Under the pieces are notes generated by a model. That model did not search any database. It saw only the letters and a program-made list of their open reading frames with translations, and was not told where the DNA came from. From NCBI GenBank assembly GCA_045863475.1, contig BTUR01000004.1:2628-66627 (forward strand): a stretch of DNA of 64,000 nt. Direction: 5' to 3'. The position numbers and the translations under genes are program-made. Position 1 is the first letter of the stretch; every line of letters starts with the position of its first letter. Shown here piece by piece: positions 2,417 through 54,987 of the stretch. The DNA is from Candidatus Campbellbacteria bacterium (lineage in GTDB: Bacteria > Patescibacteriota > Minisyncoccia > Phycocordibacterales > EsbW-18).

Positions 2417-3388
2417 TTGCATATGGAGCTTGACCTCGAACAACTCAAAAAGAATCCACGAACCGCATTCTATGCGGCTGAATTGGAGCGTCTTGCACTT
2501 GAGCGTAAAGATATCGAGCTGACGCTCGCGGCGGACCCGTCACTGCAGGATCTTGCACGGGAGGATTTACAGCAGATAGAAGCGTCAGAGCGTGCACTGA
2601 TTGAGCAGATACAGCATATGACGGCGGAGGAGAAAGCCGAAGAAGAATTCCCAAACGAGATTATTTTGGAAGTACGCGCCGGTGCCGGCGGCGAAGAAGC
2701 GGCGCTGTTTGCTGAAGAACTTGCACATATGTATGAGCGGTACGCCGAGAAGCGCGGCTGGAAGTGGACGATACTTGATGAAAGCCGTGCGGCGATGGAC
2801 GGCTACAAAGACGCGTCGTTTGAGATTCGCGGCAAGGGTGTTTATAAAGAACTTCGTTTTGAAACCGGCGTACACCGCGTGCAGCGTATCCCCGCGACGG
2901 AGAAGTCAGGCCGCGTGCACACCTCAACTGCGTCTGTCGTTATTTTGCCGGTGCGCACAAAACATACGCTTGAAATCAATCCGGCGGATATCGAAATGGA
3001 ATTCTCACGTGCTGGTGGTGCGGGCGGGCAGAACGTGAACAAGGTGGAAACGGCGGTTCGTCTCGTGCACAAACCCACGGGTCTTGCGGTCCGCTCTCAA
3101 GCGGAACGCAGTCAGCAGCGTAACCGTGAAAAGGCGATGGAAATGCTTTTGACGAAACTTGAGGCGCTTGAGGTGCAAAATGCCCAGGCGAGTCTCTCAA
3201 CAGAGCGTCTCTCACAGATAGGTACGGGCGACCGCTCGGAAAAAATCCGCACCTACAACTTTCCCCAGGACCGCGTGACCGACCACCGTATCAAGGAGAG
3301 CTGGTCAAATATCCCGGCAATTATGGAGGGAGGCATCGAGGATATCCTGGAAACCCTCGCACAGGCGTCTGAGAGGGCGGGGGCCTAA
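2417..3388 (+). CDS. prfA: peptide chain release factor 1
   Basis: GGQ motif ([24 protein letters not shown]) and the RF1-type PAT tripeptide ([14 protein letters not shown]). Confidence 0.9.
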
Positions 3389-3569: not shown

Positions 3570-4364
3570 ATGACGACCACAGAAAACCAGAAATCAGTCG
3601 CAGACCTCTTTGCTGCAGGAGCGCACTATGCGTACCCGAAAGCGCGTCGGCACCCGAGCACGAAGAAGTTCATTTTCGGCACAAAAGGCCCTGTAGAGAT
3701 TTTCGATATTGAAAAAACAGCGGATGCGTTGACACGCGCCGTTGAGGCCGTGCAGAAAGTTGCCATGACAGGGAAGAAGGTGCTCTTCGTCGGCGGAAAG
3801 CGCGAGGCACAGAAGGCGGTTCGCAATCTCGCAACGGTTGCAGGCGCGCCGTTTGTTGCAGGACGCTGGGTTGGCGGAACGCTCTCCAATTTCGATATCA
3901 TCAAAAAGCGCGTCGAAAAACTCCTGACGCTTTCTGAAGAACGCGAGCAGGGAACGCTTACGAAGTACACCAAGAAGGAACGATTGCTTATTGATCGACA
4001 GATTAAGCGTCTTGAAGAAATGTTCGGCGGTATCAAAACGATGTCGCAGACTCCGGGCATGCTCGTTGTTGTTGATCCGAAGCACGAGAAAATCGCAATT
4101 GCAGAAGCGACGATGCTTAAGATTCCCATTGTTGCGCTCGCGAACTCCGACTGTGACATTTCAACCATCACGTACCCGATTCCGGGAAGTGATGCGAATG
4201 TTGCGGCAATTACGTACGTTCTTGAACAGCTCACCGGTGCGTATGCACGCGGTGCAGCAGAAGCCCCGAAGAAAACTATTACCATGGAGCGAAAGCCGCA
4301 GCACGAGGCGCACACAGGTGGACGCCGCCTTCCGCGCTCCCCGCGCCCTGCGTCTCGCGCATAA
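3570..4364 (+). CDS. rpsB: 30S ribosomal protein S2
   Basis: N-terminus LFAAGAHYAYPKARRHP...KKFIFG.KG...IFDIEKT and the central VLFVGGKREAQ region are typical of S2. Confidence 0.9.
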   Translation: MTTTENQKSVADLFAAGAHYAYPKARRHPSTKKFIFGTKGPVEIFDIEKTADALTRAVEAVQKVAMTGKKVLFVGGKREAQKAVRNLATVAGAPFVAGRWVGGTLSNFDIIKKRVEKLLTLSEEREQGTLTKYTKKERLLIDRQIKRLEEMFGGIKTMSQTPGMLVVVDPKHEKIAIAEATMLKIPIVALANSDCDISTITYPIPGSDANVAAITYVLEQLTGAYARGAAEAPKKTITMERKPQHEAHTGGRRLPRSPRPASRA

Positions 4365-5370: not shown

Positions 5371-5446
5371 GCCGCCTTAGCTCAGTCGGTAGAGCAACAC
5401 TTTTGTAAAGTGAAGGTCCCCAGTTCGAATCTGGGAGGCGGCTCCA
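5371..5446 (+). tRNA. tRNA-Thr (anticodon UGU), CCA encoded
   Basis: Manual cloverleaf. Acceptor gccgcct/aggcggc; D-arm gctc-agtcggta-gagc; anticodon stem cact/agtg with loop tTTGTaa; T-arm cccag-ttcgaat-ctggg; discriminator t; then cca. Confidence 0.85.
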
Positions 5447-5618
5447 AACAAGCCTGTCGGGAGAGAAGTGAGGTGCCGTGGCACGTCACTTCTTTTGTTA
5501 GTGAAGGTCCCCAGTTCGAATCTGGGAGGCGGCTCCAAACAAGCCTGTCGGGAGAGAAGTGAGGTGCCGTGGCACGTCACTTCTTTTGTTAGTGAAGGTC
5601 CCCAGTTCGAATCTGGGA
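5447..5618 (+). repeat. Two extra perfect tandem copies of an 85-bp unit: a 47-bp spacer containing a terminator-like hairpin, then the 38-nt 3' part of tRNA-Thr (anticodon-stem 3' strand to CCA)
   Basis: Unit aacaagcctgtcgggagagaagtgaggtgccgtggcacgtcacttcttttgtt + agtgaaggtccccagttcgaatctgggaggcggctcca is repeated at 5447-5531 and 5532-5618. The last copy ends ctcac. The spacer hairpin is agaagtgaggtgcc/ggcacgtcacttct followed by ttttgtt. Confidence 0.85.
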
Positions 5619-5683
5619 GGCGGCTCACAGAGATTAATTGAACAGCGCGTCCTTAGCTTGCCGGGACGCGTTTTTCTTCCCCT

Positions 5684-6442
5684 GTGCCAAAGACGGCACG
5701 GACAGGTATAATGATTTTTATGCAAGAACGAAAAGAATATCACCACCCGATGACCCAAGCGATACGCGATGCCGTGCGTATCTTCTCTAGTATGGGATTC
5801 TCCGTCGCCTCCGGTCCCGAGATTGAGGATGAGTGGCACAACTTTACCGCACTTAACGTTCCCAAAGATCACCCCGCGCGTGACATGCAGGACACGTTCT
5901 GGCTTCCCGACGGACGCGTATTGCGCACGCACACGTCTCCGGTGCAGGTTCGGTGGATGCAGACGCACGAGCCGCCAATTCGCGTTATTGTTCCGGGCAA
6001 AGTATTTCGCAACGAGGCAACCGACATGACGCACGAGGCGCAGTTCTACCAACTTGAAGGCCTTGTTATTTCAGAGGACACGACGCTCGCGCATCTCAAG
6101 GGAGTGCTCGAAAAGTTTTTTAAAGAATTTTTCCACGGAGAAGTTGAAGTTCGGCTTCGTCCGAGTTTCTTCGGATTCACCGAACCCTCTGTTGAGGTGG
6201 ACATGCGTCTTTCCGGCGAAGGGGCACCAGCGAAACTGCGCGACCGATGGATTGAGGTTATGGGCGCCGGCATGGTGCATCCGCACGTGCTCAATAATGC
6301 CGGTATTGATCCAAAGCGTTTCCAGGGATTTGCATTTGGTGGTGGTATTGAGCGCCTCTGCATGCTCCGCTGGGGGATTGATGATGTCCGCGTGTTCCAC
6401 GGAGGTGATATCAGGTTTCCGATGCAATTTCCCGCTGAATAA
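5684..6442 (+). CDS. pheS: phenylalanine--tRNA ligase alpha subunit, short form lacking the N-terminal extension
   Basis: Class II motifs: FTALNVPKDHPARDMQDTFWL, HTSPVQVRWM, FRNEATDMTHEAQFYQLEGLVI, FRPSFFGFTEPSVEVDM. The true start may be an internal Met (5711, 5720 or 5747). Confidence 0.85.
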   Translation: MPKTARTGIMIFMQERKEYHHPMTQAIRDAVRIFSSMGFSVASGPEIEDEWHNFTALNVPKDHPARDMQDTFWLPDGRVLRTHTSPVQVRWMQTHEPPIRVIVPGKVFRNEATDMTHEAQFYQLEGLVISEDTTLAHLKGVLEKFFKEFFHGEVEVRLRPSFFGFTEPSVEVDMRLSGEGAPAKLRDRWIEVMGAGMVHPHVLNNAGIDPKRFQGFAFGGGIERLCMLRWGIDDVRVFHGGDIRFPMQFPAE

Positions 6443-40389: not shown

Positions 40390-40778
40390 CTTCGTTCTCC
40401 TTTGGAGAGTGAGGGGTAAAGACGATTGTATGTACAAGCTCTACGAGAGAGCGTTATTTTCCAAGTTCGTTGTTAGAGAGCTTCTGTTGAGAATATAGCA
40501 CAAACAGGCCAAAAAGTCAAGTTATGAAAAGACAAATCACGGCTCTACAGAGCCGTGGTTTAAGCAAAACAAAATCACCGAACGCGGTGCGCTCGGTTCT
40601 TTGTTTTGTGGGCGGGAGAGTCGGCCAAGCGCTCGCTTGTTGCCGTCGCTCCTCGCTCCGCTCAGCCCTGCTCTTGCGACCCCGTCTGCCACCGGGGTGC
40701 CCGCAATTCGCCTTCGAGTCCTCTCTCGCTGACAAACAAAATCGCCCAAGGACTCGCCCTGGACTCATTTGTTTGTTG

Positions 40779-40860
40779 TGGGCGGGAGAGGACTCGAACC
40801 TCCATGTCTTGCGACACCAGCTCCTAAGGCTGGCGCGTCTACCAATTTCGCCACCCGCCC
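40779..40860 (-). tRNA. tRNA-Leu (anticodon UAG), long variable arm, no encoded CCA
   Basis: Minus-sense gggcggg-tg-gcg-aaattggtaga-cgc-g-ccagc-cTTAGga-gctgg-tgtcgcaagacat-ggagg-ttcgagt-cctct-cccgccc-a. Confidence 0.8.
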
Positions 40861-40962: not shown

Positions 40963-41139
40963 GTAACCAGAGCTATTCTAGCAACAACAAAAAGGTTTTT
41001 CTAGGTGGGCCAGGTGGGAATCGGTCACGAGTATTTTTCTGCTGAAAAACCTCGCGACCCGTGAAAAGGTATTTGTATACCTTTTCACCGCGCCGTCGCG
41101 CTCCGGCTTTCGATTCCCACAACAAAAGTTTGTTTTTTG

Positions 41140-41221
41140 TGGGCCAGGTGGGAATCGAACCCACATCTCTTACGAGACACGATCTTAAGTCGTGCGCGTA
41201 TACCAGTTCCGCCACTGGCCC
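41140..41221 (-). tRNA. tRNA-Leu (anticodon UAA), long variable arm, no encoded CCA
   Basis: Minus-sense gggccag-tg-gcg-gaactggtata-cgc-g-cacga-cTTAAga-tcgtg-tctcgtaagagat-gtggg-ttcgatt-cccac-ctggccc-a. Confidence 0.8.
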
Positions 41222-41367
41222 AAAAAGGGAAGTGCGAACAGGAATCGGTCACGAGTTTCTAATTCGCTGCGCTCACAAGAACTCTTGACCTCGCCTCGTC
41301 GCCGCCGAAGGCGGCACACTGCGGCCTTCGATTCCCGACGAAAGCAAAGCAGTTTGCTTTCTTTCGT

Positions 41368-41439
41368 GAGGCACGAACGGGAATCGAACCCGTGCATAAC
41401 GGTTTTGCAGACCGTCGCGTTACCACTTCGCCATCGTGC
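41368..41439 (-). tRNA. tRNA-Cys (anticodon GCA), discriminator U73, no encoded CCA
   Basis: Minus-sense ggcacga-tg-gcg-aagtggtaa-cgc-ga-cggt-cTGCAaa-accg-ttatgc-acggg-ttcgatt-cccgt-tcgtgcc-t. Confidence 0.75.
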
Positions 41440-41454
41440 CGCTACATCCCCATT

Positions 41455-48646: not shown

Positions 48647-48717
48647 GGGCGATTAGTTAAATGGTATAACAGTGGTCTCCAAAACCACTATTGGGGGTTC
48701 GATTCCCTCATCGCCCG
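48647..48717 (+). tRNA. tRNA-Trp (anticodon CCA), no encoded 3' CCA
   Basis: gggcgat-ta-gtta-aatggta-taac-a-gtggt-cTCCAaa-accac-tattg-ggggg-ttcgatt-ccctc-atcgccc-g. Confidence 0.8.
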
Positions 48718-48893
48718 CAACGACCGGTGAAGACAGCCGGGGGCTGTCGGAGTCGGACGTCGGCGGATGCGAGAAGGGAATCGAACGGCGGAGTTCCGGT
48801 TTACCGGAACGAGCCGCGTCCAGCAGTACTTAGGAGCGAAGCGACTTAGTAACTGCGGGACGATTCCCTCAGGAATTCTGTTACACCAGAACC

Positions 48894-54091: not shown

Positions 54092-54119
54092 CGACTTCTC
54101 TTGTATACTAAAACGTGCG

Positions 54120-54193
54120 CGGGATTAGTTTAGTGGCAGGACGCGACCTTCCCAAGGTTGAGGCGCGAGTTCGATTCTCGCATCCCGCACCAT
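54120..54193 (+). tRNA. tRNA-Gly (anticodon CCC), CCA encoded
   Basis: gcgggat-ta-gttt-agtggcagg-acg?-cgacc-tTCCCaa-ggttg-aggc-gcgag-ttcgatt-ctcgc-atcccgc-a-cca. Confidence 0.8.
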
Positions 54194-54194
54194 G

Positions 54195-54265
54195 CCCCTG
54201 TAGTTCAACGGATAGAACAACTCCGTCCTAAGGAGTGGATCTGGGTTCAATTCCTGGCGGGGGCA
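54195..54265 (+). tRNA. tRNA-Arg (anticodon CCU), no encoded CCA; begins 2 nt after tRNA-Gly
   Basis: gcccctg-ta-gttc-aacggata-gaac-a-actcc-gTCCTaa-ggagt-ggat-ctggg-ttcaatt-cctgg-cgggggc-a. Position 32 is G, which is unusual. Confidence 0.7.
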
Positions 54266-54336
54266 CAAAATCTACGTTAACTAATTGAATGGGGGTTCAA
54301 TTCGGGGTGGGGGCACTGGAGTGATATACTGTTTTC

Positions 54337-54579
54337 ATGAATCCTGACGAAAAGAAACTTCTCGAAGAGACGGCAACACTTGCGCGAGAGACCAGTGTGC
54401 TCGTCAAAAAAATACACCGCCACGTGATGGTGAATAGCGTAATGCGTTTCGTGTATTGGGTGATTATTATCGGTGCCTCACTTGGTGCGTTCTGGCTCAT
54501 TCAGCCGTACATCGATTCAGTACGCTCTCTTACGGGTGGCGGAGAGGGCCAGGAAAGCCTCATGGATCTCTTTTTTTAG
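54337..54579 (+). CDS. small membrane protein (80 aa)
   Basis: One TM helix (FVYWVIIIGASLGAFWLI). Confidence 0.4.
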   Translation: MNPDEKKLLEETATLARETSVLVKKIHRHVMVNSVMRFVYWVIIIGASLGAFWLIQPYIDSVRSLTGGGEGQESLMDLFF

Positions 54580-54628
54580 GCTGGAAAGAGGCCAAAAGAC
54601 GTGGTAGCATCTTCTCTGTTCCGTACAT

Positions 54629-54705
54629 GCCGAGGTAGCTCAGTTGGTTAGAGCATCTGCCTGAAGAGCAGAGGGTCGGCGGTTCGAGTCCGCCCCTCGG
54701 CACCA
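54629..54705 (+). tRNA. tRNA-Phe (anticodon GAA), CCA encoded
   Basis: gccgagg-ta-gctc-agttggtta-gagc-a-tctgc-cTGAAga-gcaga-gggtc-ggcgg-ttcgagt-ccgcc-cctcggc-a-cca. Confidence 0.85.
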
Positions 54706-54707
54706 AA

Positions 54708-54745
54708 TCAAAACAAGACAGCTTCGGCTGTCTTGTTTTGATTTC
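54708..54745. terminator. rho-independent terminator after tRNA-Phe (aaaacaagacagc-ttcg-gctgtcttgtttt)
   Basis: Perfect 13-bp stem with flanking A-runs and T-runs. Confidence 0.7.
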
Positions 54746-54987
54746 TGCGTTGTATCGCGGCGGACTCGAAGGCCGCAGGAACGAGGCGGGGTCGAGAACA
54801 CTTAGGATTTTGGAGCCCATAGGGCGAACAAAATACTTAGTGATTCGTGACCGAGTCCGCCCCTCGGCACATAACAAGAAAAAGACAGCATGTGCTGTTT
54901 TTTTCTTGTTACTGCATGGTTGTTTTTGGTTTCTGTCTTGGTATCGTCCCTAAGGGACGCGTGCGTCCCTTAGGGACGACCGGTGTG

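Follow-up and report, generated by a model that had tools for sequence, protein, structure and literature searches.

Duplicated tRNA 3' ends in a Candidatus Campbellbacteria contig probably mark a small, structured, RtT-like element

In a 64-kb stretch of the Candidatus Campbellbacteria bacterium contig BTUR01000004.1 (64,000 nucleotides (nt), positions 2,628 to 66,627 of the forward strand; here called the window), most tRNA genes are followed by a partial copy of their own 3' end, and at five of them this copy closes a small structured element just downstream of the gene. Several described systems bear comparison. In the att-site duplications associated with prophages and genomic islands, an intact tRNA gene has behind it a second, displaced version of its 3' portion in direct orientation, which begins in the T-loop or the anticodon loop, and the host gene remains functional. 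Integron attC sites and the attP site of CTX phage are folded single-strand recombination sites, in which a hairpin rebuilds the target duplex sequence. Among retroelements, target-primed reverse transcription or tRNA-like ends are found in short interspersed nuclear elements (SINEs), in R2 with its 5' ribozyme and in the Neurospora Mauriceville retroplasmid. The RtT repeats of Escherichia coli offer the most direct parallel. Egan and Landy are said to have described the 178-bp repeat in 1978, and Bösl and Kersten reportedly described rtT RNA in 1991; a link to the stringent response has been proposed, and the repeats have been known for decades without an accepted origin or function. RtT RNA is released from the tyrT transcript, according to work cited in PMC4986893, and RtT-family RNAs have been seen on Northern blots in Actinobacillus pleuropneumoniae, of the Pasteurellaceae (PMC4986893). 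The role of RtT is still described as unknown (bioRxiv 10.1101/2024.07.17.603846).

In the window, 10 tRNA genes are called by ARAGORN and by the Rfam tRNA model alike. The last 30 nt of each were matched against the downstream sequence, with 1000 random windows of 300 nt as the control, and for seven of the 10 genes the downstream direct match beats every random match. The longest exact matches are 30 nt for Thr, 19 nt for Leu-UAA and Phe, 13 nt for Leu-UAG and Cys, and 11 nt for Trp and Arg, and the maximum across the random windows lies at 9-11 nt; a T-loop shared with the next tRNA inflates part of the Cys value. Three of the 10 genes are without any downstream 3'-end copy, and tRNA 5' ends gave no comparable matches in the same test, in which five of the tRNAs also show a significant inverted match. 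An earlier note on this DNA had reported partial 3' duplications at 6 of 12 tRNA genes, far above expectation. The excess is confirmed and the count becomes 7 of 10.

The copies at Phe, Trp, Cys, Leu-UAA and Leu-UAG are read here as the 3' boundary of a small, structured, tRNA-linked element that resembles RtT and is a non-autonomous insertion, with the Arg copy as a leftover gene end; we place the probability of this reading at about 0.6. Each of the five tRNAs is followed by an exact 11-13-nt reverse complement of its own T-loop and 3' T-stem and, about 80 nt past it, by a direct copy of its own 3' end (11-19 nt). The earlier note had recorded an inverted fragment at Phe only. That fragment, GGCGGACTCGAA at 54759-54770, is real, and its equivalents are present at Trp, Cys, Leu-UAA and Leu-UAG as well. 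The same note had asked whether the intervening segments form a common sequence family, and at these five tRNAs they belong to one conserved structured family.

At the Phe locus, the tRNA-Phe(GAA) gene (54629..54705, + strand; ARAGORN and Rfam, as for all host genes given here) is followed by a trailer with a perfect 18-bp hairpin and then a T-rich run (54705..54744, +). The element itself is matched at 54758..54861 (+; 59.9 bits, E 5e-18) by R1, a covariance model built from the element. Its 5' arm, TTCGAGTCCGCC (54759..54770, +), is the 5' strand of helix P1 and the exact reverse complement of the tRNA-Phe T-loop and 3' T-stem, and its 3' arm and tail (54852..54870, +), where the earlier note had placed the repeat, duplicate tRNA-Phe exactly over 19 nt in direct orientation, T-loop C56 to C74. 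Between them the predicted fold is a three-way junction made up of P1, a GAAGG junction, the hairpin P2 and P3, a long hairpin that is extended at its apex. The repeat runs beyond the tRNA end through the trailer/terminator hairpin, over 69 nt at 75% identity, and a second hairpin (54872..54911, +) is the diverged duplicate of the trailer hairpin, the two hairpins belonging to copies 1 and 2 of the duplicated block.

The remaining four elements are variously preserved. Downstream of tRNA-Trp(CCA) (48647..48718, +) the element is partly decayed (48773..48870, +; R1 42.3 bits), with the inverted copy at 48775-48786 and the direct copy at 48861-48871; the repeated sequence CGATTCCCTCA had been recognised earlier and was then placed at 48858-48868. 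The tRNA-Cys(GCA) gene (41368..41440, - strand) hosts an element at 41238..41339 (-; 58.6 bits) with its inverted copy at 41327-41337. The tail is partly decayed, matching at 12 of 13 nt before the repeat breaks off, and a hairpin with a AACUGCUU-type loop stands just ahead of the element. The tRNA-Leu(UAA) element (gene 41139..41221, -; element 41005..41121, -) scores 57.7 bits over 41014-41121 and has its inverted copy at 41109-41120 and an exact 19-nt direct copy at 41005-41023. At tRNA-Leu(UAG) (40778..40860, -) the element is strongly diverged (40608..40725, -; 14.3 bits, E 0.05), with inverted (40713-40725) and direct (40608-40620) copies that are each exact over 13 nt. The 3' CCA is encoded in only three of the 10 window tRNA genes (Thr, Gly and Phe), and at several loci the tail copy ends within or ahead of the CCA.

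The general order of parts is the tRNA, a short spacer or hairpin, the inverted copy of T-loop and 3' T-stem, a three-way-junction core, and the direct copy from C56 to the tRNA end; the element is about 85-120 nt long. The five window segments between the repeats align mutually, being only about 60% alike, and a fold common to all five is predicted. In this fold the inverted copy pairs with the first part of the direct copy to give P1, after which come a purine-rich GAARG joint, the P2 hairpin and the long P3 hairpin, which abuts the 3' strand of P1. The remainder of the direct copy, the acceptor 3' strand, is left free as a tail. Folding z-scores are -5 to -7 for three of the five window elements. 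An alignment of 52 copies has three near-invariant stretches (UCGAARGCCGGAG, CGAGGCGGGGUCG and CGUGACCGAKUCC, the CGUGAC of the last being counted to the core), which are separated by the two covarying hairpins, P2 and P3, variable in both length and sequence.

The structure was tested on 25 compact copies, with partners slid by 1-3 columns and 500 shuffles as controls. The proportion of paired cells was 91.8%, against at most 47% with slid partners, and the covariation score was 0.379, against at most 0.076 in the controls; none of the 500 shuffles reached the observed value. Double-sided changes occur at 16 pairs. One G.U pair is kept in 24 of the 25 sequences; its counterpart on the opposite strand would be an A/C mismatch, which places the constraint on the tRNA strand and makes it look RNA-like. 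Judged from sequence comparison, these patterns indicate that the structural constraint is on an RNA of the tRNA strand. An extra hairpin, P0, with the loop AACUGCUU lies just 5' of the inverted arm in L011, L016, L042, L047, L056, L063 and L074 (loci of the wider survey described below) and at window positions 41340-41367. Its loop is complementary to AGCAG, a frequent P3 loop, and a loop-loop contact, suggested by eye, is possible, though inconsistent across copies. Known catalytic RNAs were also considered for the junction. The hammerhead reading was discarded on inspection: GAAA fits, and neither CUGANGA nor the cleavage-site nucleotide (UH) does. Rfam searches of four regions at E up to 10 gave no match to a self-cleaving ribozyme or a group I/II intron, and an intron in the T-loop is ruled out by the first copy, which already completes the tRNA.

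In some copies the tail itself has a predicted partner. An upstream 'anti-tail' able to pair with it was considered as a general feature and dropped, being present in only 12 of 49 copies. In full-length copies that have it the folding z-scores are -7 to -10, and the predicted structure combines an acceptor-like stem and a side hairpin with P1, which encloses the junction core. On this structural model, the transcript of such copies would mimic its cognate tRNA in the acceptor/T-stem helix, the junction core standing where the T-loop would be. The acceptor-like stem and the cloverleaf-like outline of some full-length elements also lend something to the idea that the copies belong to undetected tRNA genes or to pseudogenes; the first of these the earlier note had named as a potential refutation. 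Searches with ARAGORN and with the Rfam tRNA model recover the 10 known tRNAs and nothing at the copies, even at E up to 10; the elements have no anticodon arm, their T-loop sequence is locked in a helix, and the T-stem of the Arg relic (GGGGG/CGGGG) cannot pair. The probability of this explanation is close to negligible.

The folded element can be set directly beside RtT. The E. coli tyrT-tyrV locus has three RtT units at 178-nt spacing behind tRNA-Tyr, after the tyrV gene. The fold of a unit begins with GGGGAAGGAU, the reverse complement of the T-stem region, and the unit ends with AAUCCUUCCCCCACCACCA, the last 19 nt of the tRNA; in the consensus structure of the Rfam RtT family, RF00391, these same two strands form the closing helix and the acceptor 3' strand is single-stranded. 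RtT and the elements therefore share a design. Each comes directly after a tRNA gene and in the same orientation, each finishes with a direct copy of roughly the 19 nt at the 3' end of the host tRNA (all 19 exact at Phe and Leu-UAA), and each is closed by an inverted T-stem copy paired with that direct copy, the acceptor strand staying unpaired. The core is branched and bears hairpins in each case, those of RtT with AGCGaAGcgAGA, which resembles the GAGCGAAGCGA loops of many element copies. There is also a weak full-length alignment of RF00391 to one full-length copy (L020, 12 bits, E 9).

There are also differences from RtT. The 12 bits compare with a gathering score of 45, and RF00391 has no match in the window regions at E up to 10 and none on L059; conversely, the R1 score of E. 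coli RtT does not exceed 7.8 bits. The element repeat starts at T-loop C56, whereas the RtT repeat starts at A58, and the conserved sequences of the junction core are unlike. Most elements are single and RtT is tandem. RtT is found in Gammaproteobacteria, and the elements in Patescibacteria and Elusimicrobia. The design is the same as that of E. coli RtT, and the elements, which fall outside RF00391, are a distant counterpart of it.

The spread of the family was surveyed with the pattern TCGAARGCCG..CGTGACCGAKTCC, which occurs three times in the window and not at all in shuffles. A scan of one representative genome per species matched at least 80 loci (individual loci, here and among the relatives, are cited by L numbers). 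They are mostly from Patescibacteria (Paceibacterota, Saccharibacteria, Parcubacteria and others) and Elusimicrobia. At E<1e-3, R1 finds at least 85 copies in 56 of the 80 listed loci, all in Patescibacteria and Elusimicrobia; the pattern matches in Actinobacteria, Streptomyces and others have no R1 match and were set aside as chance. The listed loci, the window and its relatives together hold 95 copies. For 77 of these a tRNA on the same strand lies no more than 400 nt upstream, mostly at a distance of 7-90 nt, and a further 6 lie at a locus edge. In the window this holds for all five elements, and the host tRNAs overall span 18 amino-acid identities. Rfam holds no matching family: the whole window at gathering score gives the 10 tRNAs only, and four regions searched at E up to 10 give noise only, apart from the weak RtT lead. 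No description of the element family in Patescibacteria was found in the literature searched, where absence is no proof of absence. As far as the literature and Rfam searches go, the family is undescribed, and it is a candidate for a new Rfam entry.

This distribution bears on whether the copies could have arisen by local replication slippage or template switching at each tRNA locus, with no shared element. An inverted copy together with a direct copy is a possible product of strand switching, Thr is a clean 91-nt tandem repeat, and tandem units occur elsewhere (L061). Independent events, however, cannot yield the same near-invariant core and fold behind 18 tRNA identities in two phyla. Slippage is contradicted for the five element-bearing loci and still possible for Thr and Arg; as an account of the whole it is very improbable.

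A second core type was seen directly behind tRNA-Leu(UAA) and ahead of a standard element in L002 (about 2890-3020, -), L015 and L003 (about 5650-5790). It has the same arms (GUGGGAAUCGAAAG ... CGAUUCC) and a different middle (ACUUUUCCGUACGAGCGAAGCGAGGUGGAAAAGU...), from which it follows that at least two core families share the insertion logic.

Both ends of the element follow the host gene closely. At 35 of 49 loci the direct copy reproduces the tRNA exactly, beginning at T-loop C56 and reaching the last base. In a set of 58, about 36 direct copies end within -2 to +3 nt of the tRNA end and 17 are decayed, and a few recent-looking copies extend 34-36 nt past the tRNA end to the terminator hairpin (53/53 in L035, 53/54 in L011). 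Three orthologous tRNA-Arg(CCG) elements have related cores, and in each the tail carries the acceptor variant of its own species (CTGAGAGC, CCGAGAGC or CCAAGAGC). At the window Phe locus 19 of 19 tRNA-derived bases are identical, as against about 66% in the duplicated trailer. The tail would be kept like the tRNA through selection, at the level of the element or of the host, or through conversion between the repeats. The 5' arm likewise matches the occupied target, changing with each host tRNA and with the one protein gene found to be occupied (topA, described below).

Repeats that start in the T-loop (at Thr, in the anticodon arm) and run to the tRNA end are also what T-loop-class att sites look like. 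The copies might accordingly be attL/attR scars of integrase-mediated integration into tRNA genes, the integrated DNA having mostly been deleted later, and Arg and Thr, both of which lack the core, could be such scars. As in tRNA att duplications, the direct repeats of the elements begin in the T-loop, at C56, and most of them stop no more than 3 nt from the tRNA end. The elements differ from such duplications in having no integrase or cargo, only about 100 nt between the repeats (145 nt at Phe), and a 5' arm complementary to the target, which att scars leave unexplained. Instead of random remnants, the spacer holds a conserved RNA-type fold of 85-120 nt, and the duplication at topA is 74 nt long. 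No recombinase is present in the window neighbourhoods and none recurs in the 56 loci. Phage records gave no match, and the single pattern match among viral contigs, inside a coding region and with no tRNA nearby, was dismissed as chance. The att-scar explanation is quite improbable. The earlier note had proposed one systematic process, either serial site-specific integration and decay or a family of repeats mimicking or targeting the 3' ends of tRNAs. The first form fails for the five element-bearing tRNAs on the grounds just given, with only about 100-145 nt between their repeats; the second holds for five of the seven cases. A single process is likewise upheld for those five, which share one element, and not for Arg and Thr, which are separate events.

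A linked enzyme was sought more widely. By Pfam, the neighbours in the window encode ClpB, DUF192, MurJ, LepA, DivIC, Hsp20, PrsW and an aminoacyl-tRNA synthetase, and no integrase, transposase or reverse transcriptase lies near the window elements. In an all-against-all clustering of 477 open reading frames (ORFs), no protein family recurs in more than 5 of the 56 loci. The elements are also unlike miniature inverted-repeat transposable elements, in that their inverted arms are target-specific rather than element-borne and the duplication length is not fixed. As to integron attC sites, the order of target copy, short body, inverted copy, variable structured middle and target copy mirrors a cassette with its attC, if only by analogy. 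The window and the loci contain no integron integrase, and no IntI or Xer context was found; the arms carry T-loop sequence and not RYYYAAC/GTTRRRY, and the conserved junction nucleotides and the G.U pair are RNA-like. We know of no integron attC or CTX-phage attP system that produces duplications of 19-74 nt.

Next, occupancy was compared among relatives at syntenic loci, as the earlier note had recommended, and it differs even between close ones. By its LepA, 76% identical to CP064977, the organism of the window is a Paceibacterota bacterium near Candidatus Campbellbacteria. The relatives were scored at the Phe locus for presence or absence only. The window Phe gene carries an element, whereas those of L082, L084 and L085 carry none. 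At tRNA-Gly(CCC) the pattern is reversed: the window gene (54119..54192, +) has no element, its orthologues in L084 and L085 have one, and in L082 a relic is visible by eye only and is not found by R1. At tRNA-Trp the element is decayed in the window (42.3 bits) and in L082 (26.7 bits), intact in L084 (75.5 bits) and absent from L085. The same tRNA-Phe 3' end is present in six lineages, only two of which have the element. A metagenome scan for the last 33 nt of the window tRNA-Phe gave four more contigs, three without an element and one with a decayed element, and one of the element-free contigs has the same tRNA-Phe to Hsp20 arrangement. By comparison of sequences, the window Phe element is closest to the L085 Gly element in its unusual P3 extension, a likeness that suggests a past move between tRNAs. 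Just upstream of tRNA-Phe, L082 has a tandem direct repeat of about 60 nt (5920-6050, read on the - strand; ..ttgccggtgtaatcgggctttcgccctcttgcctcggcggcgttcggaaataaa..), and a similar motif is found upstream of tRNA-Phe in L084 and not in the window.

Decayed copies are seen at Trp and Leu-UAG in the window and in L082 and L092, and the number of copies behind one tRNA varies, with at least two R1 matches in L061, L054 and L058 (Elusimicrobia and elsewhere) against one in L064. Such patchiness counts against the view that the element is an RNA of benefit to the host, either a processed spacer of the tRNA operon that aids or regulates tRNA maturation or a decoy or regulator acting through its tRNA-like end. 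That view gains from a covarying fold conserved across phyla, from the co-orientation with and adjacency to tRNAs, from a tail kept identical to the tRNA and co-evolving with it, from the copies that imitate the acceptor/T-stem helix, and from the precedent of RtT RNAs, which are released from tRNA transcripts and, as a family, seen on Northern blots (PMC4986893). It has to accommodate patchy occupancy among close relatives with a different carrier tRNA, visible decay, variable tandem copy number, one copy behind a protein gene with a 74-nt duplication, and three window tRNAs without a downstream copy. We regard a host-beneficial RNA as unlikely.

The copy behind a protein gene gives the clearest view of an insertion. 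At L062 (4336-4601) an element lies just after topA, the topoisomerase I gene, and has the arms AGUUUUCG/CGAAAACU instead of T-loop sequence. An exact direct repeat of 74 nt flanks the element; it starts within the coding sequence and takes in the stop codon, the ORF being intact. In the two topA genes nearest to this one (87% and 83% identical), the 3' end is present once and there is no element. At topA, as at the tRNA sites, the duplicated target starts with CGA, and duplication lengths range from about 18 to 74 nt.

Together, these features can be accommodated in a scheme for a non-autonomous insertion. The element would be selfish or nearly neutral, would have no promoter and would be transcribed together with the host gene. 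Insertion would take place immediately 5' of CGA, in tRNA genes preferably at T-loop C56, and would copy the target from CGA to about the 3' end of the host transcript, leaving the host gene intact. Copying to the transcript 3' end would make most duplications end at the mature end of the tRNA and the longer ones at the terminator. The 5' arm may be made from the target, by snap-back copying at the base of the folded core, or may be a guide that chooses the target, and the tRNA-like ends could let tRNA-processing enzymes release the element RNA. A single-strand or RNA intermediate would fit these features best. By analogy, retroelements are similar in having no promoter of their own and being co-transcribed with or derived from host RNA genes, in their variable target duplications, and in structured RNA ends set by host sequence, and a tRNA-like 3' end could start copying. 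The elements differ in being much smaller and bacterial, with no reverse transcriptase found nearby and no sign of an RNA intermediate.

Several observations weigh against reading the element as a non-autonomous insertion. No enzyme able to move it was found within the 8-kb neighbourhoods. An exact empty site for the window Phe locus could not be aligned, the closest relative, L082, being rearranged and the syntenic L091 too diverged past the tRNA. The L062 topA copy is the only clear non-tRNA insertion seen. The window copies are only about 60% alike, so that mobility in this genome would be old or the copies would have arrived separately. Tail identity and co-evolution would be explained by a selected function no less well than by a decaying scar. 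Co-transcription and processing are argued from strand, position and the E. coli analogy, and the anti-tail, which would complete the tRNA mimic, is absent from all window copies, these being of the compact kind, and found in 12 of 49 only.

A more far-reaching proposal is that the elements form a new class of small, mobile, RNA-structured elements, SINE-like or of RtT type. The 5' arm would be a reprogrammable guide or a target copy, retro-insertion would occur immediately 5' of a matching CGA-initial site, preferably in tRNA T-loops, through an RNA or single-strand intermediate that copies the 3' part of the host transcript, and the core would be a new catalytic or protein-recruiting RNA. 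We put this forward tentatively, with the odds against it; if true, it would also explain E. coli RtT. The presence of one design in E. coli and in very distant, genome-reduced bacteria means that it is general and old, and the copies provide comparative material on its origin. If the 5' arm specifies or records the site, it would belong to a very small targeting system that preserves the host gene by duplicating its end. More practically, the elements account for many apparent partial tRNA duplications and 'att-like' repeats in Patescibacteria genomes, and could be mistaken for integration scars, pseudo-tRNAs or assembly errors.

The Arg and Thr repeats are of other kinds. The tRNA-Arg(CCT) gene (54194..54266, +) begins 1 nt past tRNA-Gly, and the repeat behind it that the earlier note had quoted does exist, as a degenerate copy of its last 31 nt (54286..54316, +; 25/31, 81% identical). 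The gap between gene and copy is only 19-22 nt, and R1 finds no element core there. In the closest relative, L082, tRNA-Arg lies directly ahead of the promoter of a conserved 80-aa ORF, and its 3' end (TTCGACTCGGGGTGGGAGCAC) resembles the window pseudo-copy (TTCAATTCGGGGTGGGGGCAC), which holds the same pre-promoter position. The working tRNA-Arg of the window is of the L084/L085 type and is placed 1 nt after tRNA-Gly, where relatives have the Gly element. The Arg copy is therefore best read, from these comparisons, as the displaced 3' end of an older tRNA-Arg allele, left behind by replacement or rearrangement; the displacement would have occurred when the present gene came to sit 1 nt after tRNA-Gly. 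The tRNA-Arg(CCT) gene is on the + strand in the window (junction 54192-54194) and in L082 (6341-6413) and on the opposite strand in L084 (12738-12810) and L085 (13045-13117), a strand difference which implies that a small block was inverted or replaced within the clade.

The Thr repeat (5400..5626, +) is a tandem array of 2.5 copies of a 91-nt unit at 98% identity. Its unit consists of tRNA-Thr positions ~30-76 and the trailer hairpin, with neither an inverted copy nor a core, and the array is a different phenomenon from the element.

Three further observations were made. At L078 (6263-6349, -) a core copy directly follows a tRNA-Glu-like sequence of which the 5' two-thirds are present, a complete first copy being absent, and is itself followed by another GGAAUCGAA arm, an arrangement that may represent a nested or rearranged insertion inside a tRNA pseudogene. 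A weak R1 match at window positions 4281-4344 (12.6 bits, E 0.21), inside a long ORF and with no adjoining tRNA, is probably noise. Finally, the stretch that separates the Phe element from the end of the convergent Hsp20 gene contains a perfect 17-bp palindrome (TCGTCCCTAAGGGACGC / GCGTCCCTTAGGGACGA, 54944-54979), which may be a bidirectional terminator or a protein-binding site and is unrelated to the tRNA repeats.

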